A stretch of DNA of 47,593 bases from Candidatus Krumholzibacteriia bacterium (lineage in GTDB: Bacteria > Krumholzibacteriota > Krumholzibacteriia > Krumholzibacteriales > Krumholzibacteriaceae). The DNA is taken from positions 1-47,593 of the forward strand of contig JAPLKY010000206.1 of assembly GCA_026387805.1 (NCBI GenBank), in the 5' to 3' direction. The notes beneath the pieces were generated by a model. The model searched no databases. It was not told the DNA's origin and was given only the letters and a program-made list of their open reading frames with translations. This document shows positions 20,572 through 36,967 of the stretch, one piece after another. The position numbers and the translations under genes were made by a program. Position 1 is the stretch's first letter. Each line of letters starts with the position of its first letter.

Positions 20572-20589
20572 GAATCGCCGAGAGGCGCT

Positions 20590-22254
20590 ATGACCCATCC
20601 ATCGAGACTCATAGAACAAGCCCTAGGAGAATGGGCGGAAACCCTCGGGTCAGATGCTGTCCTAACCGGCCTGAATGCGACGGAGCTTTACCGGACAAAC
20701 GAGCTTTCTGCCAAGCGCGACATTGCCGCTGTGCTGAAGCCCCGGGGTTCTTCTCAGCTTGTTGCAGCGGTGAGAACGGCGCGCAAGTGCGGCCTCCCCC
20801 TCTACCCCGTCAGCACCGGCTGCAACTGGGGATACGGCGCAGCGAGCCCCGTCGTAGACGACTGTGTAGTCGTCGACCTCTCCAAAATGAATCAGATAGT
20901 GGACTTCGATGAAGAGCTCGGGCTTGTGACCGTTCAGCCGGGGGTGACGCCCCGGCAACTGAGGGATTTCCTGGATGCGAGGAGATCCCGATGGCTTGTG
21001 CCCGTAAGCGGCGCCGGGCCGCAATGCAGCCTCATCGGAAATGCCCTGGAGCGGGGGTATGGTGTCACCCCGTATGTGGACCACTTCAGCGCCGTTACTT
21101 CCATCGAGGCAGTGCTACCCGACGGGGAGATTTATCGCTCGGCCCTTTCGGCTGCTGGAGGCGCGGAGATCGACCAAGCCTTCAAATGGGGCGTGGGTCC
21201 GTACCTCGATGGGATCTTCAGCCAGGGCGCCTTCGGCATAGTGACCGAGATGACTATCGCTCTTGCTCCTATCCCCGAGGAAGTGGTTGCATTCATCTTC
21301 AGCTTAAAAGCGGAAGAAGACCTTGAGCCGGCTATCATCGCAGTCCATGAGATCCTGAAGTCTGTGGGAAATGTCCTGGGCTCGATCAATCTCATGAACG
21401 GCCACCGAATGCTCGCGATGGTCGAAGACTATCCCTTCAACCGGGTCGAAAAGGGAAGCCTCATGACGCACTCCCTTGTGGATGATCTGCTCAAGAAGAA
21501 TTTCTTGGGACGATGGACCCTGGGGGGTATTGTCTACGGCGACCGAGGGCTCGTTAAGTCCGCAATTTCTCTGATCAAGAGACGATCGGCGGGGATCAAG
21601 TGCCGGAAGCTCTTCTTCAATAGAAAGCGAATCAATCTCCTCAAGGCAGTCGCGAGACGCCTGCCCGGATCGCAGGCGGCGATGCTACGAAAGCAGCTCG
21701 GTAACCTCGATGATGCCTTCAATGTCGCGGAGGGCGCCCCGACGGAAACGGCGCTCAAGCTCTGCTACTGGAAGAGCGGGCAGCGGCCGCCGGAGGGGCA
21801 ACTGATGAATCCGGCCCGCGACGGGTGCGGGGTCATCTGGTACTCCCCCCTCGTTCCGATGAAGCCGGAGAAGGCGCGGGCCTACGTGGACATGGTCTAC
21901 CGAGTATGCGCCGAACACCGGATAGAGCCGCTCATCACCTTGACCTCGCTCTCCCACCGCTGCTTCGATTCGACCGTGCCGATTCTGTTCGATCCGCGGC
22001 ACGCGGATGATACAGCGCGGGCGAAGAAATGCTATGAGGCGCTCTTCGAAGCCGGGAAGGAGCTCGGGGTCCTGCCCTATCGCGTGGGAATCGATCATAT
22101 GGGCCTCATTGTCCGGCCCGACTCGACGTACTGGAAACTCGTCGCCAGGCTGAAAGAAGCTATCGACCCAGGCGGCATCATCGCGCCCGGAAGATACTGT
22201 CCGACCGATCACCCTCACGGCGCGCCCGAATGCCGACTTGGCGAAAATTCGTAG
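20590..22254 (+). CDS. FAD-linked oxidoreductase, PCMH/VAO (4-cresol dehydrogenase / vanillyl-alcohol oxidase) family
   Basis: 554 aa containing VSTGCNWGYGAASP, DLSKMNQIVDFDEELGLVTVQPGVT, GNALERGYGVTPYVDHF and FKWGVGPYLDGIFSQGAFGIVTEM. These are the hallmark blocks of the PCMH-type FAD-binding domain and its 4-alkylphenol-oxidising subfamily. Confidence 0.8.
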   Translation: MTHPSRLIEQALGEWAETLGSDAVLTGLNATELYRTNELSAKRDIAAVLKPRGSSQLVAAVRTARKCGLPLYPVSTGCNWGYGAASPVVDDCVVVDLSKMNQIVDFDEELGLVTVQPGVTPRQLRDFLDARRSRWLVPVSGAGPQCSLIGNALERGYGVTPYVDHFSAVTSIEAVLPDGEIYRSALSAAGGAEIDQAFKWGVGPYLDGIFSQGAFGIVTEMTIALAPIPEEVVAFIFSLKAEEDLEPAIIAVHEILKSVGNVLGSINLMNGHRMLAMVEDYPFNRVEKGSLMTHSLVDDLLKKNFLGRWTLGGIVYGDRGLVKSAISLIKRRSAGIKCRKLFFNRKRINLLKAVARRLPGSQAAMLRKQLGNLDDAFNVAEGAPTETALKLCYWKSGQRPPEGQLMNPARDGCGVIWYSPLVPMKPEKARAYVDMVYRVCAEHRIEPLITLTSLSHRCFDSTVPILFDPRHADDTARAKKCYEALFEAGKELGVLPYRVGIDHMGLIVRPDSTYWKLVARLKEAIDPGGIIAPGRYCPTDHPHGAPECRLGENS

Positions 22255-22321
22255 TTCTTGTACCGCTGGGTGCATCTGAAGAAGACTTCATCGTGGGATC
22301 CATACTTAATGGAGTGGTGCG

Positions 22322-22771
22322 ATGCAAGCACGTTCCCATATCCTGCTCGGGCTCATTCTCGCTATCGTTTTCTCTGGTGCGTTCAACACCGTGCCTGGGC
22401 AGGCGAACGGACAGAGTGAGGCCGATACGGTGGCAGCCCAGGATAGCTTCACGCCAATGGAGCTCATCAAGTTCCCGAGCCCCATCTATCCGGACGAGTG
22501 CCATAAGCGAGGCATCGAGGCAATAGTCCACGTTGGGCTCATAGTGAATGAGGCTGGGAATGTGGCGCAAGTTTTTCAAGCTCACACGGATTTCGATAGT
22601 AAACTTGCCCGGCATATGGACAAGAACCGGCTAAGAAGGTTCGCAAAGCTCTTCGAGGACAGCGCCATTGCCGCGGTCAAGCAGTTTGAGTTCAAGCCGG
22701 CTACCCGCGGCGGTAAACCCGTGGCACAACGCGTATGTGATATGAAAATCAGATTTCAGTTACATGATTAG
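22322..22771 (+). CDS. TonB C-terminal-domain protein (short, membrane-anchored or secreted)
   Basis: 149 aa with a hydrophobic N-terminus ILLGLILAIVFSGAF. It has the TonB_C-like pattern PIYPDECHKRGIEAIVHVGLIVNEAGNV...FKPATRGGKPV and lacks a Pro-rich spacer. Confidence 0.6.
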   Translation: MQARSHILLGLILAIVFSGAFNTVPGQANGQSEADTVAAQDSFTPMELIKFPSPIYPDECHKRGIEAIVHVGLIVNEAGNVAQVFQAHTDFDSKLARHMDKNRLRRFAKLFEDSAIAAVKQFEFKPATRGGKPVAQRVCDMKIRFQLHD

Positions 22772-23012
22772 AAGAACTCTGCCGCTCGCCTTGTAGATGC
22801 GAAGATATCAATCGAGAGGATCTTGACGCCATTGGCGGCGCCTTCCATTCAGATTCTTCCGAGAAGAGCCCGCCGCTATCGTCGTCGTATTGGGAGGTTT
22901 CGAGGGAATGAGCTCCAAAACGACAGCGATAGCGCTTAGGCGAGCACCGGAAGGGAGTGCCCGGGAACTTTGTCGATCCGTTCTTGTGGACAGACAGAAA
23001 GCGAGCGCGTTG

Positions 23013-23387
23013 CTATTCTCCTATTATCAACCGCTTTCGTTCCTCTTTGATGCCCTGCGATGCGTGGTATGCATTCACGCAGCGCAGCGAGCAAAAATAG
23101 TCGCCGTCTTCGACGATTACTACACTCCTCATCAGTCTTTCTGCATCACCTTCGATGCTGCTCAAAGCCTGGTCCTTGTTCTTGTTTTGAACTACGTACT
23201 GCTCATCTGGACGCCGCCGTATAACGTCGTAGTATTTCCCGGGAATGAAGGGAACGATCTCGTACCGGGCATCGAGAATCGGCTCTTTGCAATAAGCGCA
23301 TCGAACCGTCTTGCTGACGAATTGAGAGGCACACGACGACAAAACCACAATCGCAGCCAACATAAGAAACAAGAAGCAGTTCCTCAT
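23013..23387 (-). CDS. small lipoprotein with a CxxC...CxxxC zinc-ribbon/TRASH-like motif
   Basis: AAGGAGG lies 7 nt upstream of the ATG at 23387, so the longer track start at 23480 is unlikely. It has lipobox VVLSSC and the motifs CAYCKEP...DGDYFCSLRCVNAY. Confidence 0.55.
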   Translation of the reverse strand: MRNCFLFLMLAAIVVLSSCASQFVSKTVRCAYCKEPILDARYEIVPFIPGKYYDVIRRRPDEQYVVQNKNKDQALSSIEGDAERLMRSVVIVEDGDYFCSLRCVNAYHASQGIKEERKRLIIGE

Positions 23388-23665
23388 ATGCCATCCCTCC
23401 TTTGACATGAACAACGTCAAAGAGAGCTGCTTTTCGGAAATCCCCTCCGGCCGCATACTGCGGATGAAGCAGAAAAACATCTATGCTCGTGCAGGCGGAA
23501 TCAAACCTGTTCTGATGGGCGAATGCCCGGAACCTGTCATAATTCGCCGGCGCGCTACGCGCTTCTTTCGCCCCGCTTCTACCCCTGCCGATTCATCATC
23601 CTTGCGCTCTCCCTGTAACGGGCCCTCCGCCACGCAGGGACAGATTAAGCGACTTCTGCAAGCAC

Positions 23666-24004
23666 ATGCTGGCCATGGCGACGGCCCTTATCCCGCCGCC
23701 ATGGCTACCATTTCGACTCATACCCATCCTACAAAACCGTCTCCTAGCTTACAGTCCCCATCCACCCACTTTTGATTGGGGGGCATTGCGCGAGTGCTTG
23801 AAAATGCGAGTATTGCTACAGCAAAACCTTTACCGACAGCAGGCTCAAGAGGCAAATATGATGTCGGTGCTTTACGACCGCTCGTCCGGGTCCTTACCCG
23901 AGAAGATGCGAGAAATGCAGCTTGGCCAGATAAGAGAGCTCAGAAAGAAGGGATTGAGCGATCATCCTTACGCCTGGGCCGGATTCATTGCGTCCGGAGA
24001 CTGA
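23666..24004 (+). pseudogene. remnant of a CHAT-domain protein C-terminus (third, decayed paralog)
   Basis: The last ~75 aa (GALRECLKMRVLL...MMSVLY...MQLGQIRELRKKGLSDHPYAWAGFIASGD) align with the C-termini of both full-length CHAT genes (GLRRAFEMAG...QMDQIKKLRAEGSADHPYSWAAFIAIGDW). There are no TPR repeats, no HLATHG/LSAC catalytic region and no Shine-Dalgarno (SD) sequence. The frame is open only from 23543. Confidence 0.6.
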
Positions 24005-24106
24005 AGAACTCGGCCGTAATGCGGGACTACTGCCGTTAAACCTTCGAAACGGTCCCGTCCCCAAATCTGATTCATTCAAGAGCAATCCGATTCGGGGAAT
24101 CTACCC

Positions 24107-24604
24107 TTAAAAGAGACTCTTGATAGCCCCCCAACTAGTACCCTCTACGGCAATAGGCTCAGACGTAGTCACTGATAGGATCCCATACCACCACACCAGA
24201 GCCCCGAAGTTGCATCCGCCCGTCTGGCCTTCTGCCTGAAGTGTTAGCTTGTGTATGCCAGAAGTAATAGCTCCAAAGTCAACAACGTCTGTCTTTAGCG
24301 GTCTCCCCATAGGATCGGGGGAGTCCAGGTAACCTAGCCACTCGCTAGTGGTCACATAAGCATCATCCAAGAAGAAGTGGACTCTTATGGATGAACAATG
24401 CCCCGTGACTATATATTGGGCTCTTAATACACCATCCGTCTTGGGGAACACGTTGAAGACAGGTTCACAAACTTGAGTGCCGGAACTTGAACAAAAAATG
24501 CTGATTGCATAAGATGTATCAACTTGACCAGTTGTTCTTGCACAAAGAGAACTGGCAATCAACAACAAGACAAAAGCATCAAGGAATATCGTGTGCCTTG
24601 TCAT
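24107..24604 (-). CDS. secreted Cys-containing hypothetical protein
   Basis: 165 aa with signal peptide MTRHTIFLDAFVLLLIASSLCA. It ends ...VEGTSWGAIKSLF, a C-terminal tag like that of the 1007..2041 product. Confidence 0.55.
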   Translation of the reverse strand: MTRHTIFLDAFVLLLIASSLCARTTGQVDTSYAISIFCSSSGTQVCEPVFNVFPKTDGVLRAQYIVTGHCSSIRVHFFLDDAYVTTSEWLGYLDSPDPMGRPLKTDVVDFGAITSGIHKLTLQAEGQTGGCNFGALVWWYGILSVTTSEPIAVEGTSWGAIKSLF

Positions 24605-24951
24605 TGTTCTACCCCCCGAGAATGGCTAGCCCTGTATCGCACTCCAGCACTCAGACTGCCTTTGCATTAGGGATACAAGACTTGGATTTCATGGGCAGAA
24701 TTTTACAACACACTACACATTTTGTGAAGTTTGTTTTTGCCGCCGCGGGGAATTGGAAGGGGAATCGTGATCCATGGCTGAGAAAGCTTCTTTGTCATGG
24801 GGAGGCGGGGTGGCTGGTGCTTCGGGGACGGGAGGGGCGAAAGGAGTAGGGTACGGACCCTCCCCCAATAAATTCCTCCATATATTGACTCCTGCTCCTG
24901 AAGCTGCACTCCGGCTTGAAGCTAAATCATTGGAACGGCGTAAGTGAAATC

Positions 24952-24980
24952 TTGACAGTGTGGGCCACTCATCGTATCCT
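24952..24980 (+). promoter_or_regulatory. sigma-70-like promoter candidate for the ECF sigma gene
   Basis: TTGACA (24952-24957), a 17-nt spacer and TATCCT (24975-24980) lie ~40 nt upstream of the ATG at 25021. It is unknown whether this lineage uses this consensus. Confidence 0.35.
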
Positions 24981-25020
24981 GCTTACGTTGTGGAAATCAC
25001 CCAAGCTATTCTTATTGAAA

Positions 25021-25647
25021 ATGGGGGTCCAATTGACGGAGGATTTTTCATGGCCTCCTTTTCTCAAGCTGCTCGACAGCGATCCGGCCGCCGCATTTGA
25101 CGGTTTTTATCGTTTTGCGGTCAAATCCCTCACAGATATGCCCCCGAGGCTGATGCGCACCATGAATCGCGACGATTTCGAGGATCTCCTTCATGAAATC
25201 ATCTACCACTGCGTTAAGGATAACTATCGAGTGCTCCGGCAGTACGTTGCGAAAGGACACAGCTTCGCAGCCTGGCTCTATACCGTCGCGCATAACAAAT
25301 GCTTGGACATCCAAAGAAAGCCCATGATTGATTGCGAACCGATAGACAGGGACAAGAACGGGAAGAGCCTGGCGAATGTTCTTGCCGACAAAAAGAGCCG
25401 CGGCGAAGACCGCGCCGAATTGGTGGAGATACTGGAGGCAACCAAAAGGGCAATGGCTCAGATGGATGAACGGTGCCGTCTTTTGCTCGCGCTTGCGGCA
25501 GAGGAATACAAACCAGAGGAAATGGTTCTGGTGTTGAGAATGCCGCCCGGGCAGAACAAGAAGGTTTCTGATGATCTAAGGTATTGCCGGGAGAAGCTGA
25601 AGAAACTGCTGACTCAGGCAGGAATTGATATTAGAGCGTTGCTCTAA
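25021..25647 (+). CDS. RNA polymerase sigma-70 family, ECF-type sigma factor
   Basis: Region 2 reads DDFEDLLHEIIYHCV...FAAWLYTVAHNKCLDIQRK. The region 4 HTH reads ERCRLLLALAAEEYKPEEMVLVLRM...VSDDLRYCREKLKKLL. The ATG at 25021 is preferred over the track's TTG at 24916 because the promoter candidate lies inside that extension. Confidence 0.8.
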   Translation: MGVQLTEDFSWPPFLKLLDSDPAAAFDGFYRFAVKSLTDMPPRLMRTMNRDDFEDLLHEIIYHCVKDNYRVLRQYVAKGHSFAAWLYTVAHNKCLDIQRKPMIDCEPIDRDKNGKSLANVLADKKSRGEDRAELVEILEATKRAMAQMDERCRLLLALAAEEYKPEEMVLVLRMPPGQNKKVSDDLRYCREKLKKLLTQAGIDIRALL

Positions 25648-25770
25648 GTTGCTTCTCGGCGGTAACTTTCTATTTCTCAATAAGATGATGGTCCAAGGAA
25701 TATTTTTTCGAATGCGCCGGCCCGGATCGTTATAATGTAGAGCGCAATTGCAGGGAGCGATAGAAAAAAG

Positions 25771-26778
25771 GTGACTATGCCCCAAAGGCCCGAAAATCAC
25801 GTCTCGGATGAAGATGCCTTGGTGAACAGGCTCATTAGAGAATCGCGCGCCGAGCCGGCGCCCGGCTTCACTCGGCCTACCCAAGAAACGATTCTCGCGT
25901 ATCTCATGGGAACGGCCACTGCTGAGCAGGAAAAGCTGGTACGGAAGGCACTGCTCGAATCAAGAACCTTTAGCGACGAAATCCTGTGCATGGCCCGAGA
26001 TATTGAATCTCTTGACAGAGAGCGACTCCTCGAGCAAAAAAAAAGCCCGGTAGGCATCGCTGCGCCGGAGCTCGCCGACTTCCTAAGGAGACATGAACCG
26101 GATAGAGAGGCGCGAGCAACAGGCTCATTCCTTTCCAGGCTTCAATGGCTGCTGGTTCCCCGCAGACTCGTGCCGATAGCCGCTTCCGCTCTTGCAGTTC
26201 TTACATTTCTAATCGTGAGAATGGCGACGGGGCCGGTGCCGCAGATCGCTGAGACCACGCCGCCCTCTACTGCCCCGGTCGAGGTTGCTCCCATTACCGT
26301 GGCACTCGCCACTTGGAATCTGGTCAATTCAGCATTGGATCCCGGATACTTGCAGTCGAACATAACGCGCGGCGCCGAAACCCCGCAGCTCTACTCGAAC
26401 GCAAAAGAGGCTGCGGTTGCGAAGATAGCGTATCTTCTTGAACCGGTGAAAGGCGGATTCCGCCCTAAGTCCATCGAAAAAATGCAGCGCCCCGAGGGCG
26501 CCTATAGAACTGTGATGCTCATCTGCAATGATGTATCGGGAAACCACATAAAGGACATCGTAACGTATATTCCTTCAGTGCCCAGCACTGCCCGGCCCCG
26601 CATAACCGCCTGGGCCCTGACTCTGCCGGCGAGGAATCTGTACAATCTTCCGATGAAATCGGATACGATAACGGTACTTTTCTCAAAAGACATGCCTGCG
26701 GACGCGTGTATCGTTTTCACCTATGCCAAAGACAAAGAGCAGAAGGCAATACCAGGGTACTCACTCGAGAAGCAATAG
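25771..26778 (+). CDS. single-pass membrane protein, putative anti-sigma factor
   Basis: It lies directly downstream of the ECF sigma gene. The N-terminus ILAYLMGTATAEQEKLVRKALLESRTFSDEI resembles an anti-sigma N-domain without zinc ligands. It has one TM segment (LVPIAASALAVLTFLIV) and a ~170-aa extracytoplasmic domain of unknown type. The start is GTG 25771 or ATG 25777. Confidence 0.5.
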   Translation: MTMPQRPENHVSDEDALVNRLIRESRAEPAPGFTRPTQETILAYLMGTATAEQEKLVRKALLESRTFSDEILCMARDIESLDRERLLEQKKSPVGIAAPELADFLRRHEPDREARATGSFLSRLQWLLVPRRLVPIAASALAVLTFLIVRMATGPVPQIAETTPPSTAPVEVAPITVALATWNLVNSALDPGYLQSNITRGAETPQLYSNAKEAAVAKIAYLLEPVKGGFRPKSIEKMQRPEGAYRTVMLICNDVSGNHIKDIVTYIPSVPSTARPRITAWALTLPARNLYNLPMKSDTITVLFSKDMPADACIVFTYAKDKEQKAIPGYSLEKQ

Positions 26779-26854
26779 TTCTTTGTGAACGTATCATTGT
26801 ACTTTTTGCGGCGGCTGCGTTAATCCATTGTGAAAAATGAACCGGAGGTGGGCA

Positions 26855-29800
26855 ATGTTTGCTGCCGGAAGGATTGTGGCGACTGTTGCCGTTTTCTTAT
26901 CACTGCTGAGTTACGGCGCCGCCGCTCAGACCTGGGAAGATCTCCTGAAGCAAGCGGATGCGCTGTCACAGGCGCAAAAAGCCGATTCCGCCCTCATCTT
27001 AGGCAAGAAAGCCCTGAAGCTGGTCGAAAAGGCGTATGGCACCGAGGATACAACTACAGCACGTGCCTTGCATCATGTGGGCATTTTCAGCACCGATGCG
27101 GGCAATTATGATGATGCCATCTCCTGCCTCAAGCGGGCTCTTTCAATCCGAGAAAGAGCTTTTGGCTCCGGGGCCATAGCTGTTGGCCATACCAAGTACT
27201 TCTTGGCAGACGCCTACTTCAAGAGTGGCGAAAACGCCCAGGCTGAAGAACTTCTTACTGCGGCGCTTGCGATATATAGAAGCGATAGCGGCGAGGCAAA
27301 CGAATGGGTCGGCAAATGCGTTCTGGAGCTCGCCAATGTCGAGAGGGCGCTGATGAAATGGCCCGAAGCAATTGCTCACTTCAAAGAAGCCCAAGCGATT
27401 TTCGAGAAACTCTATGGTCCCGAGAATTCTCTGGTAGCTCGTACCTTGCTTGGCAGGGCAAACCTGTATAGGGAAAAAAGCGAATACCGGAACGCGGAAG
27501 CCGCATATAAGGGTGCAATTTCAATCTGGGAAAGGACCGCGGGTCCCTTGGATCATAATCTTGCTTCGGCGTACGATAATTTGGCTTCTTCGTACCGGCA
27601 GGAGGGCAGATTTGCCGAATCCGAGGAGTATCACAAGAAGGCTCTCGGTATCGTGCAGAAGATCCTCAGGCCTGATCACCCTGATTTGGCATCGTACCTT
27701 TGCAATACCGCCACTCTCTACTGCGACTTGGGAAAGTTCGCCGAGGCGGAATCTCTCTACACGAGAGCCCTCACGATAGAGAAGAAGGCATACGGCGTCG
27801 ATAATTCGAAAGTGGCCGAAACCCTCGATCTGGTGGCCGGTTTCTACTTTGATACTCAGCAGTTCGAAAAGGCCGAAGAGGTTTCAAAGCAATGCTTGGC
27901 CATAAAAAGGAAAGAACTTTCACCCAATCATTACTTGCTCGCCACCAACTTATCCAATCTTGCCGTAATCAATTACGCGCTCGAAGATTATGCCGAAGTC
28001 GAATCCTTACTGAAAGAATCCATAGAGATATATGAGGCAGCGTCGGCCGAGGAGAATCACTACGCTGCCGCCGCAATATTGAATCTGGCGACCTACTATA
28101 TGTTGAGGGGTAACTATCCTGCGGCGGACTCCCTCAACAATGAAGCGTTGGCTATCTATGAAAAAATCTACGGGCCGGATCATCTCGACGTTGCTCTGAC
28201 CCTCGAAGCGCTTGCAACGAGCCAAATGGTACAAGAAGACCCCGCGAAAGCTATCGCTCTGGGCGAAAGGGCGTTCAAGATCCGGTGGCAGAACTTCCAG
28301 AACAACGGGTATATCCTTCCGGAAGAAGATGCATTGATCTATTCGGCCCAGCTGCGGGGAGCGGCAGATTTGGTACTTTCCTTCTACTTTGCCCTTCCCG
28401 GCGATGCACAGCTGGAAAGGGCCTCCTTTGCGAGAGGCCTGGCCGATATTGCCTTGGCTTCCAAAGGCAATGTATCGGATATTATTCTTGGACGGCAGCG
28501 ATCGCTAGCCGTCGAGAGCGATTCCATAGCTCGAGGGCTGGAAGATTCTTACAGAGCAACCATTCTGCGGTCTTCGGAGCTATTCGCTGAAAAGCCGACC
28601 GCAATGCCCCAGCGCACATACCGCCGACAGCTTGACTCACTTCAGCAAGTGATAGATCAGATGGAAGCGGAACTCAATCGCCACAGCGAGAGCTTCCGGG
28701 AAAAGCGGGCCTTGGAAAATATCAGTTGTGATCGGATACGCGAGTTGCTACCCCAAGGCGCGACCCTCGTTGAGTACGTAAAATATGATTTCATCCGATT
28801 GAGTCCCGCGGACACACAATCCTGCTACCTCGCCGTCACCCTGGACAATACCGGACCTCTCGCTTTTGTCGATCTCGGAGGAGCCGCGGCCATTGATTCT
28901 CTCGTTACCGCATATCTCGAACACATGGGTAGAATGGCATCTCGATCTCATGCGCCTTTGAAAGAGGATATGCCCGAGTACGAGCGCATCGCAAGGAAAC
29001 TCTACAGCGCCGTTATCGGCCCCGTGGAAAACCGTATTACTGGAAAGACCCTCGTTCTCATCGCCCCCGACGGCGCGCTGAATAGCGTCTCATTTGCCGG
29101 CCTTGTCGATAAGAGGGGAAGATATCTGATCGAAGATGTGCCGATCCATTATCTATCTACGGGCAGAGACCTCATACGCTTGGAGCATCGGAACGAATCG
29201 GGCGCCGGTCTCTTCGCTCTCGGAGATCCGGATTTCGATGCGACCCCGGCCGAGAGACTCTCTCGCATGGCATCTGCCGCATACGCAATGGCAGGCGAAG
29301 ATGCATCCATCAATCGCAAGGCGCGAGTGAATATGGGAAATATGCGGAGCTCGAAGCTGGCGCGATTGCCCCGCAGCCAGGCGGAGGTCAAAGAAATTGT
29401 GAAGGAATGGAGACGGCTCACCAAGGAACCGGTCGCCGAATTCCTCGGGGCGGAGGCCAGCGAAGACAATTTTGTTGCTCAGGCGCCGGGAAAAAGGATC
29501 ATTCACCTGGCGACCCATGGATATTTCTACGAAGCGATGAACGAACATCTTCAAGGCGAAGACGAATCTTCCATGCAACCGGGCGTCGCCGAGCTCAATC
29601 CTCTGCTTCTTTCAGGGCTTTTTTTCGCGGGAGCGAATTATGATGGCGCCGCGTCCGCCGCACAGGACGTTGAAGACGGTCTCCTCACCGCGTATGAAGT
29701 ATCCGCCATGAATCTCGCCGGCACCGACATGGTGGTACTATCTGCATGCGAGAGCGCCTTGGGTGCGATCAGATCGGGCGAAGGGGTCTACGGTCTTCGT

Positions 29801-30055
29801 CGCGCCTTCGAGATGGCGGGAGTACGGACCATCGTGAGCGCACTATGGCCGGTGCCCGACGCGGCGACCGCCCGCCTGATGAGCCAATTGTACGCGCATT
29901 CGGAGCAGCCGATCCCGGATCGGATTCGGCGCGTACAGATGGATCAGATCAAGAAACTGCGGGCGGAAGGCTCCGCCGATCATCCATACAGTTGGGCGGC
30001 TTTCATAGCCATCGGCGATTGGCACAGTTTATGGCCGGAGGCGGTCATCCACTGA
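26855..30055 (+). CDS. exported TPR-repeat + CHAT (caspase-like peptidase) domain protein, paralog 1
   Basis: The ATG at 26855 follows GGAGGTG; the track start at 26837 is also possible. It has signal peptide MFAAGRIVATVAVFLSLLSYGAAA-Q and a long array of TPR-like repeats. The CHAT domain carries HLATHGYF (His at nt 29516-29518) and VVLSACESALG (Cys at nt 29747-29749). Confidence 0.85.
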   Translation: MFAAGRIVATVAVFLSLLSYGAAAQTWEDLLKQADALSQAQKADSALILGKKALKLVEKAYGTEDTTTARALHHVGIFSTDAGNYDDAISCLKRALSIRERAFGSGAIAVGHTKYFLADAYFKSGENAQAEELLTAALAIYRSDSGEANEWVGKCVLELANVERALMKWPEAIAHFKEAQAIFEKLYGPENSLVARTLLGRANLYREKSEYRNAEAAYKGAISIWERTAGPLDHNLASAYDNLASSYRQEGRFAESEEYHKKALGIVQKILRPDHPDLASYLCNTATLYCDLGKFAEAESLYTRALTIEKKAYGVDNSKVAETLDLVAGFYFDTQQFEKAEEVSKQCLAIKRKELSPNHYLLATNLSNLAVINYALEDYAEVESLLKESIEIYEAASAEENHYAAAAILNLATYYMLRGNYPAADSLNNEALAIYEKIYGPDHLDVALTLEALATSQMVQEDPAKAIALGERAFKIRWQNFQNNGYILPEEDALIYSAQLRGAADLVLSFYFALPGDAQLERASFARGLADIALASKGNVSDIILGRQRSLAVESDSIARGLEDSYRATILRSSELFAEKPTAMPQRTYRRQLDSLQQVIDQMEAELNRHSESFREKRALENISCDRIRELLPQGATLVEYVKYDFIRLSPADTQSCYLAVTLDNTGPLAFVDLGGAAAIDSLVTAYLEHMGRMASRSHAPLKEDMPEYERIARKLYSAVIGPVENRITGKTLVLIAPDGALNSVSFAGLVDKRGRYLIEDVPIHYLSTGRDLIRLEHRNESGAGLFALGDPDFDATPAERLSRMASAAYAMAGEDASINRKARVNMGNMRSSKLARLPRSQAEVKEIVKEWRRLTKEPVAEFLGAEASEDNFVAQAPGKRIIHLATHGYFYEAMNEHLQGEDESSMQPGVAELNPLLLSGLFFAGANYDGAASAAQDVEDGLLTAYEVSAMNLAGTDMVVLSACESALGAIRSGEGVYGLRRAFEMAGVRTIVSALWPVPDAATARLMSQLYAHSEQPIPDRIRRVQMDQIKKLRAEGSADHPYSWAAFIAIGDWHSLWPEAVIH

Positions 30056-30133
30056 GGAGAGGCCCAAACGCTTTTCGAACGCCGCTACAAGCATGACAAC
30101 TATTTGGACGATCGCAATAAGAAGGAGGAAATT

Positions 30134-33100
30134 GTGAGGTCTATTTCGAGGATTGTGATGATGACCGCCATGTTTCTTATGGCGTGCTCGCAACCGCTTT
30201 GGGCAGAGAGCTGGCAGGAATCCCTGGCCCGAGCTGATTCCCTCTTCAACGCTCAGAATAAGGAATCCGCAATTGACGAATGCCGGAAGGCTCTCGAAAA
30301 GGCCGAGGGCATATTTGGACAGGAGGATACCTTAACGGCGCGCATTCTCCATCGGTTGGGATCCTATTATTCGGCAAGCAACAGATTTCAAGAAGCGGAG
30401 GGCAGCTACAAACGTTCTCTTTCCATCAGAGAAAGGGTCTTTGGCAACGAGAACCTCGAGGTGGCAAATAGTCTCGAGGCCCTGGCGATGCTCTATGTGC
30501 AACTTGGCAAGCCCATTGATGCTGAACCCCTGAGCCGCAGATCTCTCGCGATACGGGAGAAAATGCTCGGTATAGATGATCTCTCGGTTGCGAATAATCT
30601 CATGAATCTGGCAATCATTGTCGATTATCAAGGGAAATATGATGAGGCCGAGTCGCTCAACAATCGCTCTCTAGCGATCAGAGAGGCGAAGCTTGACCCT
30701 GAAGATCTCTCTATTGGTCAAGGCCTCAATAATCTTGCGATCGTCTATTACCAAAAAGGCAAGTACGCGGAGGCCGAGCCTCTCTACCGGCGCGCCCTGA
30801 TGATAAGAGAAAAGGGGCTAGGCAATGATCATCCGGAACTTGCGAAAACTCTCGCCAATTTAGCCCTCAATTATCGCGATCAGGGGAGATTCGCGGAGGC
30901 CGAGCCCCTTTTCCAGCGCGCCATATCAATCTTTGAGAAAAAGCTCCCGGCAGAGCACCCGGTCAAGGCGAACGCACTAACAAACTTGGGCAGCCAATAC
31001 TATCTTCAAGGGAGATATGAGGATGCGGTAACACTATACTCTCGTGCGCTCGCAATCATGGAAAAGGTGTATGGCTCCGAAAGCCTCAACATCACGAGCA
31101 GTCTCACCAATCTCGCGAACGTCTATGGGGATCAGGGCAAGTATGACCAGGCCACGGAGCTCAGCATGCGCGCCCTCGCAATCAAGGAAAAGTACTACCC
31201 GCCCAATCACCCGAGCATCGCGAATAGCGTGATCAATCTTGCGCAGCTTTATCATCTTCAGGGCCAATACGCTGAATCGGAAGCAATGCATAAAAGGGCT
31301 CTCGCTATACGCCAAGAGGTGTTGCCTCCGGGGCACCCGGATATCGCCCAGAGCTATGTTCAAATAGCCAATCTCTTCATTGACGAAGGTGATTACATCG
31401 CGGCGGACAGTGCATTGGACACTGCTTTGGCCATTCAAGAGACCTCTCTCGGTCCCAATCATCCTGACGTGGGCTTAACCCTGGAGCTAATGTCCGAATT
31501 GTGCCGGCATCGGAAAGAAGGAGAGAGGGCATTGCTGTTGGCCGAGCGAGCCGCACGGATAGCCCGCAGCAGCTTCATCGAGAATGCGAACGTCTTGCCC
31601 GAAAATGATGCGCTTACTTATTCTCATCTTTTCCGCAGATCCGCTTACAAATACCTGAGCGCCTACGAAGATCTAAGAGCCAGAAGTACTGAAACGGCGC
31701 TCGGAGTATCGGACGCACTCTTCAGTACAAAGGGGCAAGTCTCGGATGAAATTTTCGAACGCCGCAAGCCGCTCGTATTGGAGGGAGACTCAACCACCGT
31801 GACCCTTATGCAGAAACATAATTCGGCCCGGCGTCAACTCTCAAAGATCTTTATTCAGGGCCCTGGCAAGAACATTAGAGTATACAAAGCAGAGGTTGAT
31901 TCTTTGGCCAATGTGGTCGCCTCGCTTGAGTCCGATCTCTCGGCACAAAGCGCAACCTACAGGCGAGGTCAGCAGAGCAAGGACATCACTGCCCGGCGCA
32001 TCTCTTCTCTCTTGCCTCCCCAGAGTATACTTATTGAATACTTCAAGTACGATTATTATGGCATTCAGCCCAAGGTCAGAATCCCGCGGTACGTGGCCGT
32101 GGCGCTCGATGAAAAAGCCACGCCATTCATCGTCGATTTGGGAGCCGCAGCCGTTATTGACTCGCTCGTCGATGTCTACCATAACCACATGCTGGCTGTT
32201 TCCAAGAAACGGCATCTGCCGTTGAAGGAAGACCAAGCAGCATATTCAATGATTGCCTCGGAGCTCTATGCAAAGATATTTGCGCCGATCGAATCGTCGG
32301 TTCGTGGGAAGAAACTCGTATTCATCGCGCCCGACGGAGCGCTCAACCTGGTCTCCTTCGCCGCGCTGGTGGATAAGAGCGGAAAGTATGTGATCGAACA
32401 ATATCCAATCCACTATCTTTCCGCCGGCCGCGATATCATCCGCCTTCAATACAAGGATATATCCGCGCGCGGACTATTTGCCCTCGGCGACCCCAACTAC
32501 GACGATGCCCCGGCTCAATACGCCGCTACCGCGCGAGATGCATACGCCACCCGCAACATGCGTTCGGAGTGCACGAATCTGAACAGCCTGATGGCCAAAC
32601 GCCTGCCCCAAACAAAGAAAGAGATTCAACTGGTCGCGAATCTCTGGAAGACTCAGAGCGATGAACCTATGGAAATCTATCTTGATCGGGACGCCACCGA
32701 GGAAAACTTCAAGACAGAAGCTTCAAAAAAGAGATGCATTCACCTCGCCACGCATGGCTACTATTTGACGGGGGCATGCAAGAGTGCTCAAGGAGGACAA
32801 TGGTCGGCGCTCAACGAGGCGTTTGTCGGCGAAAATCCGTTGTTGCTCTCCGGTCTTCTGCTTGCCGGCGCCAATCGGCACGGCACCTCGGCCGATAGCC
32901 TTGGCACCGAGGACGGTATCCTCACGGCCTATGAAGTCTCCGCTATGGATCTTACGGGCACGGAAGTTGTTGTACTCTCCGCGTGCGAAACAGCTCTCGG
33001 GGACATAAAAGAAGGCGAGGGCGTTTATGGCTTGCGGCGCGCATTCCAGATGGCCGGTGCCCGGACGATTGTCAGCGCGCTCTGGCCCGTTCCTGATGAG

Positions 33101-33265
33101 GCCACGGCAGAGATGATGACGCGCCTCTATGCCCCATCGAAACAGTCTTTTCCCGATCGTTTCCGGCAGATGCAATTGGAGCAGATTAGAAAACTCCGCA
33201 GTCAGGGTTCCGCTGACCACCCTTACACCTGGGCAGGGTTCATTGCGATCGGGGACTGGAAATAG
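30134..33265 (+). CDS. exported (possibly lipoprotein) TPR-repeat + CHAT domain protein, paralog 2
   Basis: The GTG at 30134 lies 5 nt after GAAGGAGG; the track's TTG at 30104 is less likely. The N-terminus MRSISRIVMMTAMFLMAC-SQ is lipobox-like. After a TPR array it carries HLATHGYY (His at nt 32753-32755) and VVLSACETALG (Cys at nt 32984-32986). The C-terminal region is ~75% identical by eye to paralog 1. Confidence 0.85.
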   Translation: MRSISRIVMMTAMFLMACSQPLWAESWQESLARADSLFNAQNKESAIDECRKALEKAEGIFGQEDTLTARILHRLGSYYSASNRFQEAEGSYKRSLSIRERVFGNENLEVANSLEALAMLYVQLGKPIDAEPLSRRSLAIREKMLGIDDLSVANNLMNLAIIVDYQGKYDEAESLNNRSLAIREAKLDPEDLSIGQGLNNLAIVYYQKGKYAEAEPLYRRALMIREKGLGNDHPELAKTLANLALNYRDQGRFAEAEPLFQRAISIFEKKLPAEHPVKANALTNLGSQYYLQGRYEDAVTLYSRALAIMEKVYGSESLNITSSLTNLANVYGDQGKYDQATELSMRALAIKEKYYPPNHPSIANSVINLAQLYHLQGQYAESEAMHKRALAIRQEVLPPGHPDIAQSYVQIANLFIDEGDYIAADSALDTALAIQETSLGPNHPDVGLTLELMSELCRHRKEGERALLLAERAARIARSSFIENANVLPENDALTYSHLFRRSAYKYLSAYEDLRARSTETALGVSDALFSTKGQVSDEIFERRKPLVLEGDSTTVTLMQKHNSARRQLSKIFIQGPGKNIRVYKAEVDSLANVVASLESDLSAQSATYRRGQQSKDITARRISSLLPPQSILIEYFKYDYYGIQPKVRIPRYVAVALDEKATPFIVDLGAAAVIDSLVDVYHNHMLAVSKKRHLPLKEDQAAYSMIASELYAKIFAPIESSVRGKKLVFIAPDGALNLVSFAALVDKSGKYVIEQYPIHYLSAGRDIIRLQYKDISARGLFALGDPNYDDAPAQYAATARDAYATRNMRSECTNLNSLMAKRLPQTKKEIQLVANLWKTQSDEPMEIYLDRDATEENFKTEASKKRCIHLATHGYYLTGACKSAQGGQWSALNEAFVGENPLLLSGLLLAGANRHGTSADSLGTEDGILTAYEVSAMDLTGTEVVVLSACETALGDIKEGEGVYGLRRAFQMAGARTIVSALWPVPDEATAEMMTRLYAPSKQSFPDRFRQMQLEQIRKLRSQGSADHPYTWAGFIAIGDWK

Positions 33266-33616
33266 GAGGCCCATTGCCACAGGAAGAGCATGCTTCAATG
33301 GCATTGCATATCCAGAAGTGCCGCATTGAATATGAGCATAAATGGATGGGGAACACCGACCATCTCCATGTACGGGGCTCTGGCGAGCAACCAATACCGC
33401 TTCCGGCCTGTCTCCCGCAACGTGCCGCAAGATTATCATCTGTGGACCCGGTTACGTTGGGCCCAAAGTGGCAAAAGGTCATATTTGACATTGACCGGTT
33501 GCGCGGATGCATATTGCGCGGTTCGTGAAACATACGAATCCGATGATTCTCTCACGCGGGGTATCCGCGTTGGCTATTGATCATAGGGATCTGCTGCACC
33601 GCGAGAGCACGATCAC

Positions 33617-33650
33617 AAACCGGGTCGATTCCCAAGAATCGGCCCGGTTT
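33617..33650 (+). other. 15-bp stem-loop in a 523-nt non-coding spacer (terminator-like)
   Basis: AAACCGGGTCGATTC-ccaa-GAATCGGCCCGGTTT pairs over 15 bp with one G.U. The stem ends in TTT in either orientation and lies ~350 nt after the CHAT-2 stop. Confidence 0.35.
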
Positions 33651-33788
33651 CTAGAGGGAAAACACACTGTCATCGCCGGTTTTTTATAGTTCTCATGCCC
33701 AAAGATGCGCTATAATAACCCCCAGACGCACGGGGGAAAAGACCACATTGATATGCTAATTAGAAAAGCGTTAGCGAGGTGAGTTCGA

Positions 33789-34700
33789 ATGAGCAGTAAG
33801 TTCTTGTTCCGTGCCATCGGTCTGGCGATACTTATTCTCAGCTCAAATCTGGCTGCCCAAGAATGTCCTGAGGAATCTCCTTTGAAGAATTACACGGGCA
33901 CCGGTTCCATCGTCTGTCCATGTTTTGTTGCAGGGGAAGAAGCGGGTGCCGTGCTTAATGCCCCTGCCGAGCATTACCCCATTCAAGTCCTTCGTATTGG
34001 ACTCGGATGGAGCTCTCAATTCGGCGGAGCACCGCGGCAAGTCGAAGAGGCAATACATATCTATGAAGCGGGGCTTCCGAATCCTGGCGCGCGCCTTTAT
34101 TCCCTCGAGGGTCCCTATCTCACTGATGGGGCGATAAACGAATTCAATCTCGAAAGCCAACTCGGCAAGGTCATTGTCGATTCTGGGCCGTTCACTGTTA
34201 CGCTTCAGTTCTTTAACACGAATGCAGGGGATCCCTTCGCTCCCAGCATGGTACACGACGGTAATGGTTGTCAGACCGGCAAGAATGTAATCTATGCTAT
34301 ACCTGACGGCTGGATGAATGCGTGTGCCGCGGGCGCTACCGGAGATTGGATCCTGTATGCAGTTTATCGACGAGTCAACTGCACTACGGGCACTGATGAA
34401 GAATATATCGCCTCAAACCGCGTGCCGGCATTTCTCTGGAATGCGCAGCCGAATCCATTCAGCTCGAGCACGAGGATAGATTTTTTCCTCTCAAAAGAGG
34501 CCAAAATCCGCGTCGATGTCTATGATATACGGGGCAGCAAGGTTGCAACTCTGGCGGATTCCAACTTCCCCCCAGGTAAGCACTCCATCATGTGGGAAGG
34601 AAGATCGCCGAATTCGGCTCGCTTGGCCAGCGGGGTTTATTTCGTAGAGTTACGAAGGGACGATTTCAAAACCGTTAAGAAGGTGATCATTGCTCGCTGA
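33789..34700 (+). CDS. secreted protein with a T9SS-type C-terminal sorting domain
   Basis: 303 aa with an SD GAGGTGA and signal peptide ...LILSSNLAAQE. The C-terminus reads QPNPFSSSTRIDFFL...IRVDVYDIRGSKV...WEGRSPN...SGVYFVELRRDDFKTVKKVIIAR. Confidence 0.75.
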   Translation: MSSKFLFRAIGLAILILSSNLAAQECPEESPLKNYTGTGSIVCPCFVAGEEAGAVLNAPAEHYPIQVLRIGLGWSSQFGGAPRQVEEAIHIYEAGLPNPGARLYSLEGPYLTDGAINEFNLESQLGKVIVDSGPFTVTLQFFNTNAGDPFAPSMVHDGNGCQTGKNVIYAIPDGWMNACAAGATGDWILYAVYRRVNCTTGTDEEYIASNRVPAFLWNAQPNPFSSSTRIDFFLSKEAKIRVDVYDIRGSKVATLADSNFPPGKHSIMWEGRSPNSARLASGVYFVELRRDDFKTVKKVIIAR

Positions 34701-34817
34701 GCGGCGATTGATCAGCAAGCATGAAAAGCGAGCAAAACGGCAAACAGATTTGCAGAACTGATTTTGCTTGCCTGTTCTCCGGGAGAGATTCTGCTTCGAT
34801 AACCCGCCGGTATTTCG

Positions 34818-35810
34818 TCACTCTTCGCCGGAAACGATGTTCATTGGGCACGGCGGTTCTGCACCCGCAAGAATATCGGATGGATCCATCAGATTCCTGC
34901 ACTCATACCCATATATGGTTTGTACCCCCCTCTTATCGCCGCAGGACATGGTCCGTCTGAATGTCGCGCCGAGATCAGTGCTCCAGAACATCGTTTCTGT
35001 CATGCACGAAGGGTCCGTCAAATCATCGAGGCCCCACACATGCCCGAACTCATGCGTTAACACGGATTGCAAATCGAACTTATTGCTCTCACCATTTATG
35101 CCCCATGGTTCCCCAGAGTCAACCGTCACATCAACCTCCGTCACGTATTCCCCGGAATGCCACGTGTAAGTCTGCGCTAGAATCCCGCCGAATTCATCGA
35201 TTGGAGCCGCGTAGACTGCATTATACCCATCGCGGGCTCTGCCCACGCTTCTGAGGTTCAAATCGTAGCTAAATCCAATCTTGGCGCAGCTATTCCAATG
35301 CCATTCGCTCATTGCGCGTATGGCGGTATTGTTCGATATGCTTGTCCAGCCAGGATCGAGATTCTTGAAGCTCGGAGCCATCGCAATATTGACCCATTTG
35401 ATGCCTGCTACTTTAGCCCAGATCTTCGGCAGGGCCCGCCAACAACTCGAATTGCTATTGCACGCCCTCTCGCTAACGGGAATGACTGCCCTGGCTGTCG
35501 CAGAAGCTCCATCGTCGTCTGTCACTGTGAGGCTCACGGCAAAGTTGCCGAGGCGTCCGATTCTCTTAACAACCGAGGCATCGCTCGACGCGCTCCCGTC
35601 GTCGAATTTCCACTGAACTCTTGCTATGCGACCATCCGGATCACTCGAGGGTGACGAATTAAATAATATGTCCTCATTAATATATGTAGGGGTCGAGTAA
35701 CTGAACTTGGCGACAGGATCCCTGTTTTCCGGTTCAGAGCACCCGTAAAGCTGGCCCAATATCACCAAGAGTATCAGAGCAAGTACCGCTTTCGCGAAAT
35801 TCGTATCCAT
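34818..35810 (-). CDS. lipoprotein with a PKD domain and a metzincin-type zinc protease domain (HExxHxxGxxD, snapalysin/matrixin-like)
   Basis: AGGAGG precedes the ATG and the lipobox is GQLYGC. The PKD-like segment reads FNSSPSSDPDGRIARVQWKFDDGS...VSLTVTDDDGASA. HEFGHVWGLDD lies at nt 35022-35054 (minus strand). Confidence 0.75.
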   Translation of the reverse strand: MDTNFAKAVLALILLVILGQLYGCSEPENRDPVAKFSYSTPTYINEDILFNSSPSSDPDGRIARVQWKFDDGSASSDASVVKRIGRLGNFAVSLTVTDDDGASATARAVIPVSERACNSNSSCWRALPKIWAKVAGIKWVNIAMAPSFKNLDPGWTSISNNTAIRAMSEWHWNSCAKIGFSYDLNLRSVGRARDGYNAVYAAPIDEFGGILAQTYTWHSGEYVTEVDVTVDSGEPWGINGESNKFDLQSVLTHEFGHVWGLDDLTDPSCMTETMFWSTDLGATFRRTMSCGDKRGVQTIYGYECRNLMDPSDILAGAEPPCPMNIVSGEE

Positions 35811-35823
35811 ATTATCTCTCCTC

Positions 35824-36303
35824 CTATTCCTTTGTCATTATCTTGACTCGCGCCATATATGCCCGGACGCTTTCGCCTGATTCCTGAATGACATCATGTA
35901 CAATTGAGTACTTGCCCTGGGCCCCGTGCTTGACCCCGACCTTCCCGTTTGCTTGTGTTTCAAGATAGAGCAGCACTTCTTCGCCAAGTTCAAAGGTCGG
36001 TACATCGCTCACGATCAACCCAATATCTCCAATATGCCCGCCGACCACTGTAATTTTAACGAGAGTCACTTGTGGGTCGCCCTTAATGCACTTGTTGATT
36101 TGAACGGTATAGTCGGTGAAAATGAGCGCCCCGTCTTCGCTCCAGTAGCATTGCTTCCCGATCACCTTGCCGATGACAATCCCGCTGGATCTCTTTATCA
36201 GTTGCGCCTCCGGAACCTTCACCATGAGCGAATATGCTGATTGGGTTGCCATGACTATCGCCGCGCTTGCCAGAAGGATGATCCTAGAAATCCTCAAATT
36301 CAT
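35824..36303 (-). CDS. secreted hypothetical protein
   Basis: The ATG at 36303 follows GGGAGG, so the track start at 36339 is less likely. It has signal peptide MNLRISRIILLASAAIVMATQSAYS. Its stop lies 13 nt before the protease gene start, so the two are likely co-transcribed. Confidence 0.55.
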   Translation of the reverse strand: MNLRISRIILLASAAIVMATQSAYSLMVKVPEAQLIKRSSGIVIGKVIGKQCYWSEDGALIFTDYTVQINKCIKGDPQVTLVKITVVGGHIGDIGLIVSDVPTFELGEEVLLYLETQANGKVGVKHGAQGKYSIVHDVIQESGESVRAYMARVKIMTKE

Positions 36304-36494
36304 AACAGCCTCCCTCGAATTGACTGGACCGCTAATCAAGAATTGCTCTCCCTCTGCCTTAGATAACGATCATAAGCGGGGGGTTTCGGAGAAAGAAATT
36401 CGAGCACAATCAAATCAGAGTCGCGTTAGGATCAAGAACCGATGGAGGCGGCTTTGATGGGGGAAAACGTTCGTGTGTGACGCAACCAAAGTGA

Positions 36495-36545
36495 GGTTCA
36501 TAGCCTCGGCGTGGAGATCCGTTCTCCTCGGCGAGGCTATGAACC
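36495..36545. repeat. perfect 14-bp inverted repeat with a 23-nt spacer
   Basis: GGTTCATAGCCTCG (36495-36508) pairs with CGAGGCTATGAACC (36532-36545). It lies just downstream, on the minus strand, of the stop at 36569. It could be a terminator or an operator. Confidence 0.4.
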
Positions 36546-36568
36546 CGGAGAACTACCGTGAAAGCCTG

Positions 36569-36901: not shown

Positions 36902-36967
36902 GACCTCCTCCTTCTTTGGTCCATAGCAGCCAACTTCAATTTGATCAAACGCTTTCACCAAAGCTAG

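Follow-up and report, generated by a model that had tools for sequence, protein, structure and literature searches.

An extracytoplasmic function sigma module in which predicted exported TPR-CHAT proteins accompany the periplasmic domain of an anti-sigma-like protein

Does a caspase-like protease outside the cytoplasm help to control a sigma factor, or does it work under the control of one? The question is raised by a stretch of 47,593 nucleotides (nt) from Candidatus Krumholzibacteriia bacterium (GenBank assembly GCA_026387805.1, contig JAPLKY010000206.1, positions 1 to 47,593; here called the window). In it, four co-directional open reading frames (ORFs) on the + strand, 25021..33265, encode an extracytoplasmic function (ECF)-type sigma factor, a 335-residue membrane protein resembling an anti-sigma factor, and two paralogous proteins, CHAT-A and CHAT-B, each with a TPR array and a CHAT domain. 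A reading of the letters of this DNA (the sequence-only reading) had described the same ORFs, and all four were recovered as claimed, including the sigma gene at 25021..25647 and the 123-nt gap to the second gene. It had offered two roles for the CHAT proteins: sensor or site-1 protease acting on the anti-sigma factor, or envelope effectors of the sigma regulon.

Whether the genes belong together can be judged from their neighbourhoods in other genomes. The sample, drawn from the contigs of 43 sigma homologues and from a scan of one genome per GTDB species, comprised 23 non-redundant loci, in which every ORF was scored with custom hidden Markov models (HMMs) of the three families (sigma, 335-residue protein and CHAT). 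In all 23 independent loci, the sigma gene is followed directly by a member of the 335-residue family. The loci come from Krumholzibacteria, Eisenbacteria, Zixibacteria, Ignavibacteria/Ignavibacteriales, Fibrobacteraceae (Fibrobacterota–Chlorobiota–Bacteroidota, FCB, group) and unclassified metagenome-assembled genomes, and their flanks are unrelated. A TPR-CHAT gene adjoins the pair in 15 of the 22 evaluable loci, L011 not being evaluable for this feature. Its position varies: in most cases it lies downstream of the pair, yet L008, L012 and the P0044 locus have it upstream, and L023 has it in convergent orientation. Two CHAT paralogues are present in three loci (the window, L001 and L025), a TPR gene in L013 is cut by the contig end, and L015, L017, L019, L021 and L022 have no CHAT within the available DNA. 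Among the best 150 of the 173 matches to the 335-residue family, none is fused to a TPR-CHAT. Because the arrangement recurs in independent genomes with unrelated flanks, the linkage of sigma, 335-residue protein and CHAT lies far beyond chance, and the neighbourhood first noticed in the window is thus conserved across several phyla. Fortuitous adjacency of unrelated genes is refuted by recurrence in more than 15 independent loci, in several phyla and amid unrelated flanks, and we give it practically no credence.

The architecture of the 335-residue protein indicates what kind of partner the sigma factor has. It contains one hydrophobic segment, at about residues 131–156, preceded by Arg-rich sequence, which agrees with its earlier description as a single-pass membrane protein. 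The AlphaFold2 (AF2) model, with a mean predicted local distance difference test score (pLDDT) of 83, divides the chain into four parts: an N-domain (residues 1 to ~130) with helices at 13–25, 38–45, 51–63, 65–91 and 101–108; a transmembrane (TM) helix at residues 134–152 (nt ~26170–26226); a Pro/Thr/Ala-rich linker of low confidence at residues 153–178 (pLDDT 56–59); and a mostly-beta C-terminal domain, predicted to be periplasmic, at residues ~179–335 (nt ~26305–26775; pLDDT mostly >90). Pfam and NCBIfam scans of the window protein gave no match, and a word-indexed search returned the protein itself and one close relative only. Scanned in full with HMMER, 1.84 billion representatives yielded a family of 173 clusters at E <=1e-3, nearly all members being 290–345 residues long and the majority aligning end to end. 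A 75-sequence profile of the family had no match in the PDB, although values of E as high as 10 were admitted, and Foldseek with the AF2 model gave a best E of 0.13, so that the beta domain has no significant fold match. The N-domain carries the pattern I-x-AYL-x-G-x-A...Q...V-x2-AL-x2-S-x2-FR-x-E, which is in register with the signature of zf-HC2 (PF13490), the zinc ligands H-x3-C-x2-C being replaced by A-L-x2-S-x2-F. Zf-HC2 matches the family consensus weakly (13.4 bits, E 0.085), at the position expected (residues 37–61 on profile positions 6–30), and 3 of 75 members reach E ~0.03 or weaker. The anti-sigma assignment made in the sequence-only reading is still inferential, the match being of just 13 bits although in the right place. 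The placement is that of a class I anti-sigma factor, directly downstream of and co-directional with an ECF sigma gene in 23/23 loci and with a single-pass, N-in topology. Within the beta domain, Arg200 is near-invariant in a (S/T)N-x-TR-G loop (residues ~194–202), and an AWxLxLPxRxLY motif is conserved at residues 279–292; speculatively, the exposed Arg200 loop is a candidate cleavage or docking site.

The occurrence of CHAT follows the C-terminal half of this protein. According to domain-level HMM coordinates, every locus with an adjacent CHAT encodes the complete 335-residue architecture, whereas L017, L018 and L019 encode the N-terminal half only and have no adjacent CHAT (that of L018 lies 4.4 kb away). 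Protein P0147 has kept the N-domain (46% identity) with another, larger periplasmic part; a gene for a WD40 protein comes after it, and there is no CHAT on its 14.8-kb contig. The reverse exchange is seen in L027, where P0146 matches the family through its TM helix and beta domain only (129 bits, HMM positions 113–317) and has a bona fide zf-HC2 N-terminus (42 bits, cutoff 22). The L027 sigma is an ECF factor with Pfam Sigma70_r4_2 that does not match the sigma-family HMM and is thus unrelated, and the next gene, in convergent orientation, encodes a predicted exported protein that belongs to the same TPR-CHAT clade (499 bits). In sum, of the 19 loci that have the beta domain, 16 have an adjacent CHAT, compared with none of the 4 that lack it (p ~0.004, a hypergeometric value worked by hand from these tallies). 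This co-variation shows TPR-CHAT tracking the predicted periplasmic beta domain of the anti-sigma-like protein rather than the sigma factor. Because the same domain occurs on a canonical zf-HC2 anti-sigma factor, P0146, the beta-domain proteins are probably anti-sigma factors, and the 335-residue protein would then bind the sigma encoded beside it.

That L027 has exchanged both sigma and cytoplasmic domain but retained CHAT implies that CHAT is coupled to the sensing side and not to sigma promoter specificity. Of the two roles proposed earlier, the comparative data therefore favour the one on the input side, although cleavage itself is something we infer. The opposite role, with the TPR-CHATs as envelope effectors in the regulon or operon of the sigma factor and without a part in its control, seems to us distinctly unlikely. 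Neighbours of ECF sigma/anti-sigma pairs are often regulon members, and those who classify ECF factors caution that context does not separate regulators from targets (PMC7826278); an output gene could well vary in position and strand and be absent from some loci, as CHAT does and is. However, the unrelated sigma of L027 implies another promoter specificity, yet CHAT still stands beside the same periplasmic domain, and loci with the sigma family and the N-domain but without the beta domain have no adjacent CHAT.

The promoter region also bears on the proposal that the CHAT proteins are output. The top promoter-like site across 24000..33900 lies at 24952..24980 and is the single match in the window to TTGACA-N16-18-TAYNCT (0.05 expected). 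In at least eight related loci, TTGACA and a TATnCT-like hexamer recur upstream of the sigma gene at the same distance, ~85–106 nt before the WPxFL codons. Counts of a common ECF-type bipartite promoter upstream of 20 sigma genes were not above those in shuffles, and GGAAC was present in just 4 of the sigma upstream regions; a recognisable autoregulatory ECF promoter was accordingly dropped as a candidate. Taken as longest ORFs, the genes are separated by 123, 58 and 48 nt in gene order; the 76- and 78-nt spacers given previously fit downstream alternative starts. No convincing + strand terminator was seen between the four module genes. These features support the four genes as a single unit behind one predicted sigma-70-like promoter. 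A conserved promoter of this type, short spacers, no convincing terminator and no common ECF-type motif fit a constitutively made sensor operon; the promoter and the missing common motif argue against CHAT genes as targets of the sigma factor.

CHAT-A and CHAT-B look like exported and proteolytically active proteins. Pfam TPR_12 matches both (253 bits in CHAT-A, 283 bits in CHAT-B), the arrays being of the kinesin-light-chain type, and Pfam CHAT (PF12770) matches CHAT-A at 210.5 bits (profile 2–289 of 289) and CHAT-B at 226.6 bits (4–289 of 289). The two are 41% identical over their whole length (residues 12–1062). The two TPR-CHAT paralogues were thus correctly recognized by the sequence-only reading, whose sigma, TPR and CHAT assignments were matched by Sigma70_r2, TIGR02937, TPR_12 and CHAT PF12770. 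CHAT-A consists of a predicted signal peptide (residues 1 to ~30, with cleavage between AAA and QTW), a TPR/helical array (~33–640) and the CHAT domain (717–1061; nt 28985–30019), which in CHAT-B spans residues 718–1051 (nt 32255–33256). The catalytic dyad is formed by His894 (nt 29516) and Cys971 (nt 29747) in CHAT-A and by His884 (nt 32753) and Cys961 (nt 32984) in CHAT-B. Both Cys positions are those noted before. Of 10 module-linked homologues, all 10 keep the surrounding motifs HLATHG and LSACE unchanged, and the His and Cys are also invariant in 44 of 44 broader aligned homologues. With a 10-sequence profile, the Cys lines up with C907, the catalytic residue of DdvA (8rot_B), an anti-sigma factor of Myxococcus xanthus, and with the craspase Cys; a single-sequence phmmer search of the PDB with the CHAT domain found nothing. 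The AF2 model of CHAT-A (pLDDT 86.9; predicted template-modelling score 0.81) has as its top Foldseek matches separase (E 2e-14), DdvA (6e-12) and Csx29 (8e-12), all with probability 1.00, and model and matches agree on the architecture of separase, craspase and DdvA, an N-terminal TPR/helical solenoid packed on a C-terminal caspase-like domain. Recent tandem duplication of the two genes was rejected: besides the 41% identity, the neighbour-joining tree is star-like and the paralogues are not sisters.

Export is predicted from the N-termini. In all 19 module-linked or close CHAT proteins, a positively charged stretch at the N-terminus leads into a hydrophobic one (in L005 after the called start was shifted upstream), and the leaders end right before the conserved mature start (E/Q)(T/S)W..LL...ADSL. 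In the CHAT-A model, residues 2–24 form a detached helix followed by a low-confidence segment. The predicted secretion signals noted earlier are thus conserved as hydrophobic leaders, but the lipobox-like LMAC of CHAT-B, with LMA before the Cys and non-canonical at -2, competes with a signal-peptidase-I site between LWA and ESW that falls at the predicted cleavage position of the paralogues, so that lipidation of CHAT-B is ambiguous. Neither protein has a C-terminal sorting domain for type IX secretion, and for this reason both are most likely retained in the periplasm. An exported TPR-CHAT, which the sequence-only reading had set against the cytoplasmic location of the best-studied one, is by prediction common: 82 of 120 CHAT-A homologues have a hydrophobic N-terminal leader.

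The reading that we favour is that a periplasmic TPR-CHAT cleaves the periplasmic part of the anti-sigma factor in trans (site-1 cleavage) and so frees the sigma factor. We would put this cleavage at about an even chance, and we are considerably more confident that CHAT and the periplasmic domain of the anti-sigma factor work together. In outline, the 335-residue protein would hold the ECF sigma at the inner membrane, with its helical N-domain as the anti-sigma domain, and its Pro/Thr/Ala linker and beta domain would provide the substrate or docking site for the exported TPR-CHAT. The kinesin-light-chain-type TPR array would bind a signal in the periplasm, in all likelihood a protein or peptide, and binding would switch on the His/Cys dyad of CHAT. 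The active enzyme would then cut the periplasmic part of the anti-sigma factor in trans, after which an RseP-type site-2 intramembrane protease and cytoplasmic proteases would free the sigma. The overall design would be that of DdvS/DdvA from M. xanthus, with the protease split off as a gene of its own and sometimes duplicated. A broader generalization, to which we lend somewhat less than even weight, is that in FCB bacteria an operon-encoded, trans-acting periplasmic TPR-CHAT serves as a dedicated site-1 protease, with the hitherto undescribed beta domain as docking site or bait and the domain–protease pair portable between unrelated sigma/anti-sigma cassettes.

Several observations count against this proposal. 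In 6 of the 22 evaluable loci there is no adjacent CHAT, and three of these (L015, L021 and L022) keep the beta domain, so that CHAT is not obligatory in cis. At least one close CHAT homologue is solitary (L026); of the two examined, the other (L025) lies within the same module. The 335-residue protein has no significant match to any anti-sigma family, PDB sequence or fold. Cleavage that depends on CHAT is still undemonstrated for DdvA, where mutating the dyad left unperturbed cells without a phenotype (PMC11506125). Finally, the signal peptides were called from hydrophobicity and alignment.

An alternative is a partner that does not cleave: CHAT could bind the beta domain as a co-sensor or be held inactive by it, much as securin holds separase, while its substrates are other periplasmic proteins and the sigma is freed by dissociation of the complex or by a different site-1 protease. 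Co-variation of the beta domain with CHAT shows that the two are coupled but not that one cuts the other; a pseudosubstrate inhibitor keeps separase in check, and the dyad of DdvA is in a resting geometry (PMC11506125). The diverged paralogue pairs of the window, L001 and L025 could also mean distinct substrates. We nevertheless consider a non-cleaving partner unlikely: an invariant catalytic dyad argues for genuine protease activity, the linker that joins the TM helix to the beta domain, flexible and modelled with low confidence, resembles a site-1 substrate, and the module contains no other conserved protease.

Site-1 cleavage by CHAT would give the module a place among systems of regulated anti-sigma proteolysis. 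In the RseA/DegS/RseP and RsiW/PrsW/RasP systems, a signal-activated site-1 cut of a single-pass anti-sigma factor allows site-2 cleavage. The module as proposed shares with them a single-pass anti-sigma factor whose periplasmic part is first cut by a site-1 protease. Where RseA/DegS and RsiW/PrsW rely on a serine protease or metalloprotease, the module would use a clan-CD cysteine protease equipped with a TPR sensor, and, unlike in these canonical systems, the gene for this candidate site-1 enzyme shares an operon with that for its presumed substrate.

The comparison with DdvS/DdvA is more detailed. DdvA begins with a zinc anti-sigma domain, crosses the membrane by a single TM helix and continues through a flexible linker into a periplasmic TPR-CHAT part of ~900 residues (PDB 8rot and 8rw5; PMC11506125, PMC6061681). 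As its site-1 step, CHAT autoproteolysis in trans has been proposed, not shown (PMC6061681, PMC11506125), whereas RseP-dependent degradation after removal of the TPR-CHAT part has been shown (PMC11506125). The predicted ingredients of the window module recur in DdvS/DdvA: an ECF sigma, a single-pass, N-in anti-sigma factor whose TM helix is followed by a flexible linker, and a TPR-CHAT with its His/Cys dyad in the periplasm. The proposed logic, CHAT as site-1 enzyme and then RseP, is the same. In the module, however, protease and anti-sigma factor are encoded apart, each ORF having its own start and stop, in place of the single polypeptide of DdvA; the protease has a predicted signal peptide, and three loci carry two copies of it. 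The anti-sigma-like protein has a periplasmic beta domain of its own (~155 residues) without a counterpart in DdvA, its N-domain is of a non-zinc type compared with the CHCC zinc anti-sigma domain of DdvA, and the CHAT domains are distant (profile E 3.6e-4 across ~65 residues). DdvA-like fusions are reported only from Myxococcota and one Comamonas (PMC11506125, PMC6061681), whereas the module belongs to FCB-group bacteria and in the window has no defence island attached. Because the single-polypeptide architecture is lacking, a beta domain is added and the CHAT and anti-sigma domains are only remotely related, we treat the module as an independent split variant of the DdvS/DdvA kind and not as a DdvA member.

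Three other systems share parts of this plan. Csx30, a protein that binds an ECF-like sigma, is a demonstrated substrate of craspase, the TPR-CHAT protease of type III-E CRISPR (clustered regularly interspaced short palindromic repeats) systems (PMC10028731); craspase is likewise genetically tied to an ECF-like sigma and of the same fold class (the Csx29 match above). Craspase is, however, cytoplasmic, RNA-guided and CRISPR-associated (Cas7-11/gRAMP, Csx29, Csx30, Csx31 and an RpoE-like sigma; PMC10028731), whereas the module's CHAT proteins carry predicted signal peptides. The NCBIfam models for Csx29 and for the III-E sigma scored 18 bits (cutoff 300) and 24 bits (cutoff 100), and the window contains neither a Cas7-11 match nor a CRISPR array. 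The absence of an experimental precedent asserted by the sequence-only reading is thus only partly correct and by now outdated: DdvA unites a transmembrane anti-sigma factor with a periplasmic TPR-CHAT of known structure and proposed site-1 role, and craspase cleaves the sigma-binding protein Csx30 (PMC6061681, PMC11506125, PMC10028731). ECF54 factors also have CHAT genes nearby, together with carboxypeptidase and subtilase genes, and control by proteolysis has been suggested for them (PMC8999054, PMC7826278); they are actinobacterial and described without an anti-sigma factor, unlike the sigma family of the module, which always has a membrane partner and belongs to the FCB group. Separase, the best structural match of CHAT-A, is similarly built, with a helical/TPR-like array ahead of a caspase-like domain that a bound partner regulates, but is eukaryotic, cytoplasmic or nuclear, much larger and without a link to sigma. 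We found no description of a split module of sigma, anti-sigma and exported CHAT in the literature searched, which is not proof of absence.

DdvS/DdvA also suggests what such a module might sense. It controls a CBASS (cyclic oligonucleotide-based antiphage signalling system)/CRISPR island (PMC11506125), and triads of protease, anti-sigma factor and ECF sigma, such as Craspase–Csx30–RpoE and CalpL–CalpT–CalpS, recur in defence systems. The module could accordingly detect a phage-associated protein in the periplasm and turn on defence genes, a role compatible with the cleavage mechanism; its placement between AbiE pairs and a type I restriction-modification methylase in L006/L007 would suit this. 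We hold such a role to be a possibility of low probability, given that PADLOC defence models match none of the four proteins beyond generic TPR, that the window has no CRISPR array and no recognisable defence genes beside the module, and that most other loci have housekeeping neighbours or cargo of the type IX secretion system (T9SS). Identification of the module with a known defence system was set aside, PADLOC having returned generic TPR matches only. In L006/L007 the module lies between two AbiEii/AbiEi pairs and the type I restriction-modification gene HsdM, and such defence-island-like surroundings are absent from the other loci.

If CHAT acts as we propose, the split arrangement matters chiefly for experiment. 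DdvA joins protease and substrate in one polypeptide, and CHAT is so far its proposed site-1 protease; in a naturally split module, the genes for enzyme and substrate can be separately expressed, mixed and mutated, which makes this role directly testable. The analysis moreover sets out a periplasmic domain family of ~170 sequence clusters that has no name as yet, with a predicted partner for it, and it offers a hypothesis on what the very common exported TPR-CHAT proteins do. The triad of caspase-like protease, anti-sigma factor and ECF sigma, known from Myxococcota and from CRISPR systems of the cytoplasm, would thereby reach the cell envelope in several phyla that have been little studied. 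After DdvA and craspase such a module is not astonishing; its worth lies in a split design, a partner domain still without a name and a spread over FCB phyla that bring the mechanism within reach of experiment.

The sigma factor itself matches Pfam Sigma70_r2 at 24.6 bits (cutoff 24) and NCBIfam TIGR02937 (sigma70-ECF) at 45.4 bits (cutoff 42.9) over residues 46–197, so that regions 2 and 4 are both present; Pfam Sigma70_r4 gave no match. Because both scores barely exceed their thresholds, the protein is, by its profile matches, a divergent ECF-type member. Its start has alternatives (204 residues in the NCBI annotation; longest ORF from 24916), and the family comprises 43 homologues of 37–62% identity. 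Across 30 homologues, Cys152 and Cys189 are invariant and His63-Cys64 near-invariant, within the motifs YHCVKD, CRLLLE and LRYCRxKL; the pattern, unusual among ECF sigma factors, may be a metal or redox site.

The features of the locus are collected in the table.

Table. Features of the module and its immediate surroundings in the window
Feature	Position (nt)	Strand	Size, evidence or remark
ECF-type sigma gene	25021..25647	+	208 residues; Pfam Sigma70_r2 and NCBIfam TIGR02937
Gene for anti-sigma-like single-pass membrane protein	25771..26778	+	335 residues; TM segment, AF2 model, synteny
CHAT-A, predicted exported TPR-CHAT protease	26837..30055	+	1072 residues; Pfam, AF2, Foldseek, dyad
CHAT-B, paralogous predicted exported TPR-CHAT protease	30104..33265	+	1053 residues; Pfam, identity to CHAT-A, dyad
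Predicted sigma-70-like promoter, TTGACA-N17-TATCCT	24952..24980	+	~40 nt upstream of sigma ATG
Relic, last ~50 codons of a third CHAT gene	23843..24001	+	tblastn and CHAT-domain HMM

At other loci, further genes accompany the module. A divergent pair upstream in L018 (10..8117, - strand) encodes a 968-residue Peptidase_C13 protein (legumain-like, clan CD) with a FlgD_ig tail and a 1206-residue TPR-CHAT, which hints at further clan-CD partners. In L003 (4530..5549) and L006 (5733..6767), a signal-peptide protein of ~340 residues without a Pfam match is encoded ~400 nt upstream of the sigma gene; it is not found in the window. In L025, the module of sigma, anti-sigma and two CHAT genes is followed by genes for a 323-residue protein without a Pfam match and a CHASE2-SpoIIE (PP2C) sensor phosphatase (14293..17175).

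The window's own neighbours of the module include T9SS-type cargo with Por_Secre_tail/FlgD_ig C-termini and a PKD-matrixin metalloprotease, at 13351..16338 (-), 33789..34700 (+) and 34818..35810 (-), and, upstream, radical-SAM/B12 (18898..20571), FAD_binding_4 (20590..22254) and TonB_C (22322..22771) genes; none of these is conserved beside the module in other loci. The central window, 14000..38000, which holds the module, has a G+C content of ~50–56%, compared with 58–66% in 1..14000 and 38000..46000, and a mosaic origin or mis-binning is possible. Upstream of the promoter, ORF 23666..24004 (112 residues) scores 66.5 bits with the CHAT-domain HMM, but its likeness to CHAT is confined to the final 50 codons, and it was rejected as a genuine gene in favour of a relic, 60% identical to CHAT-B residues 1002–1051 (tblastn, E 1e-13). 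The remainder of this third CHAT gene is gone, which suggests turnover of CHAT copies at the locus.

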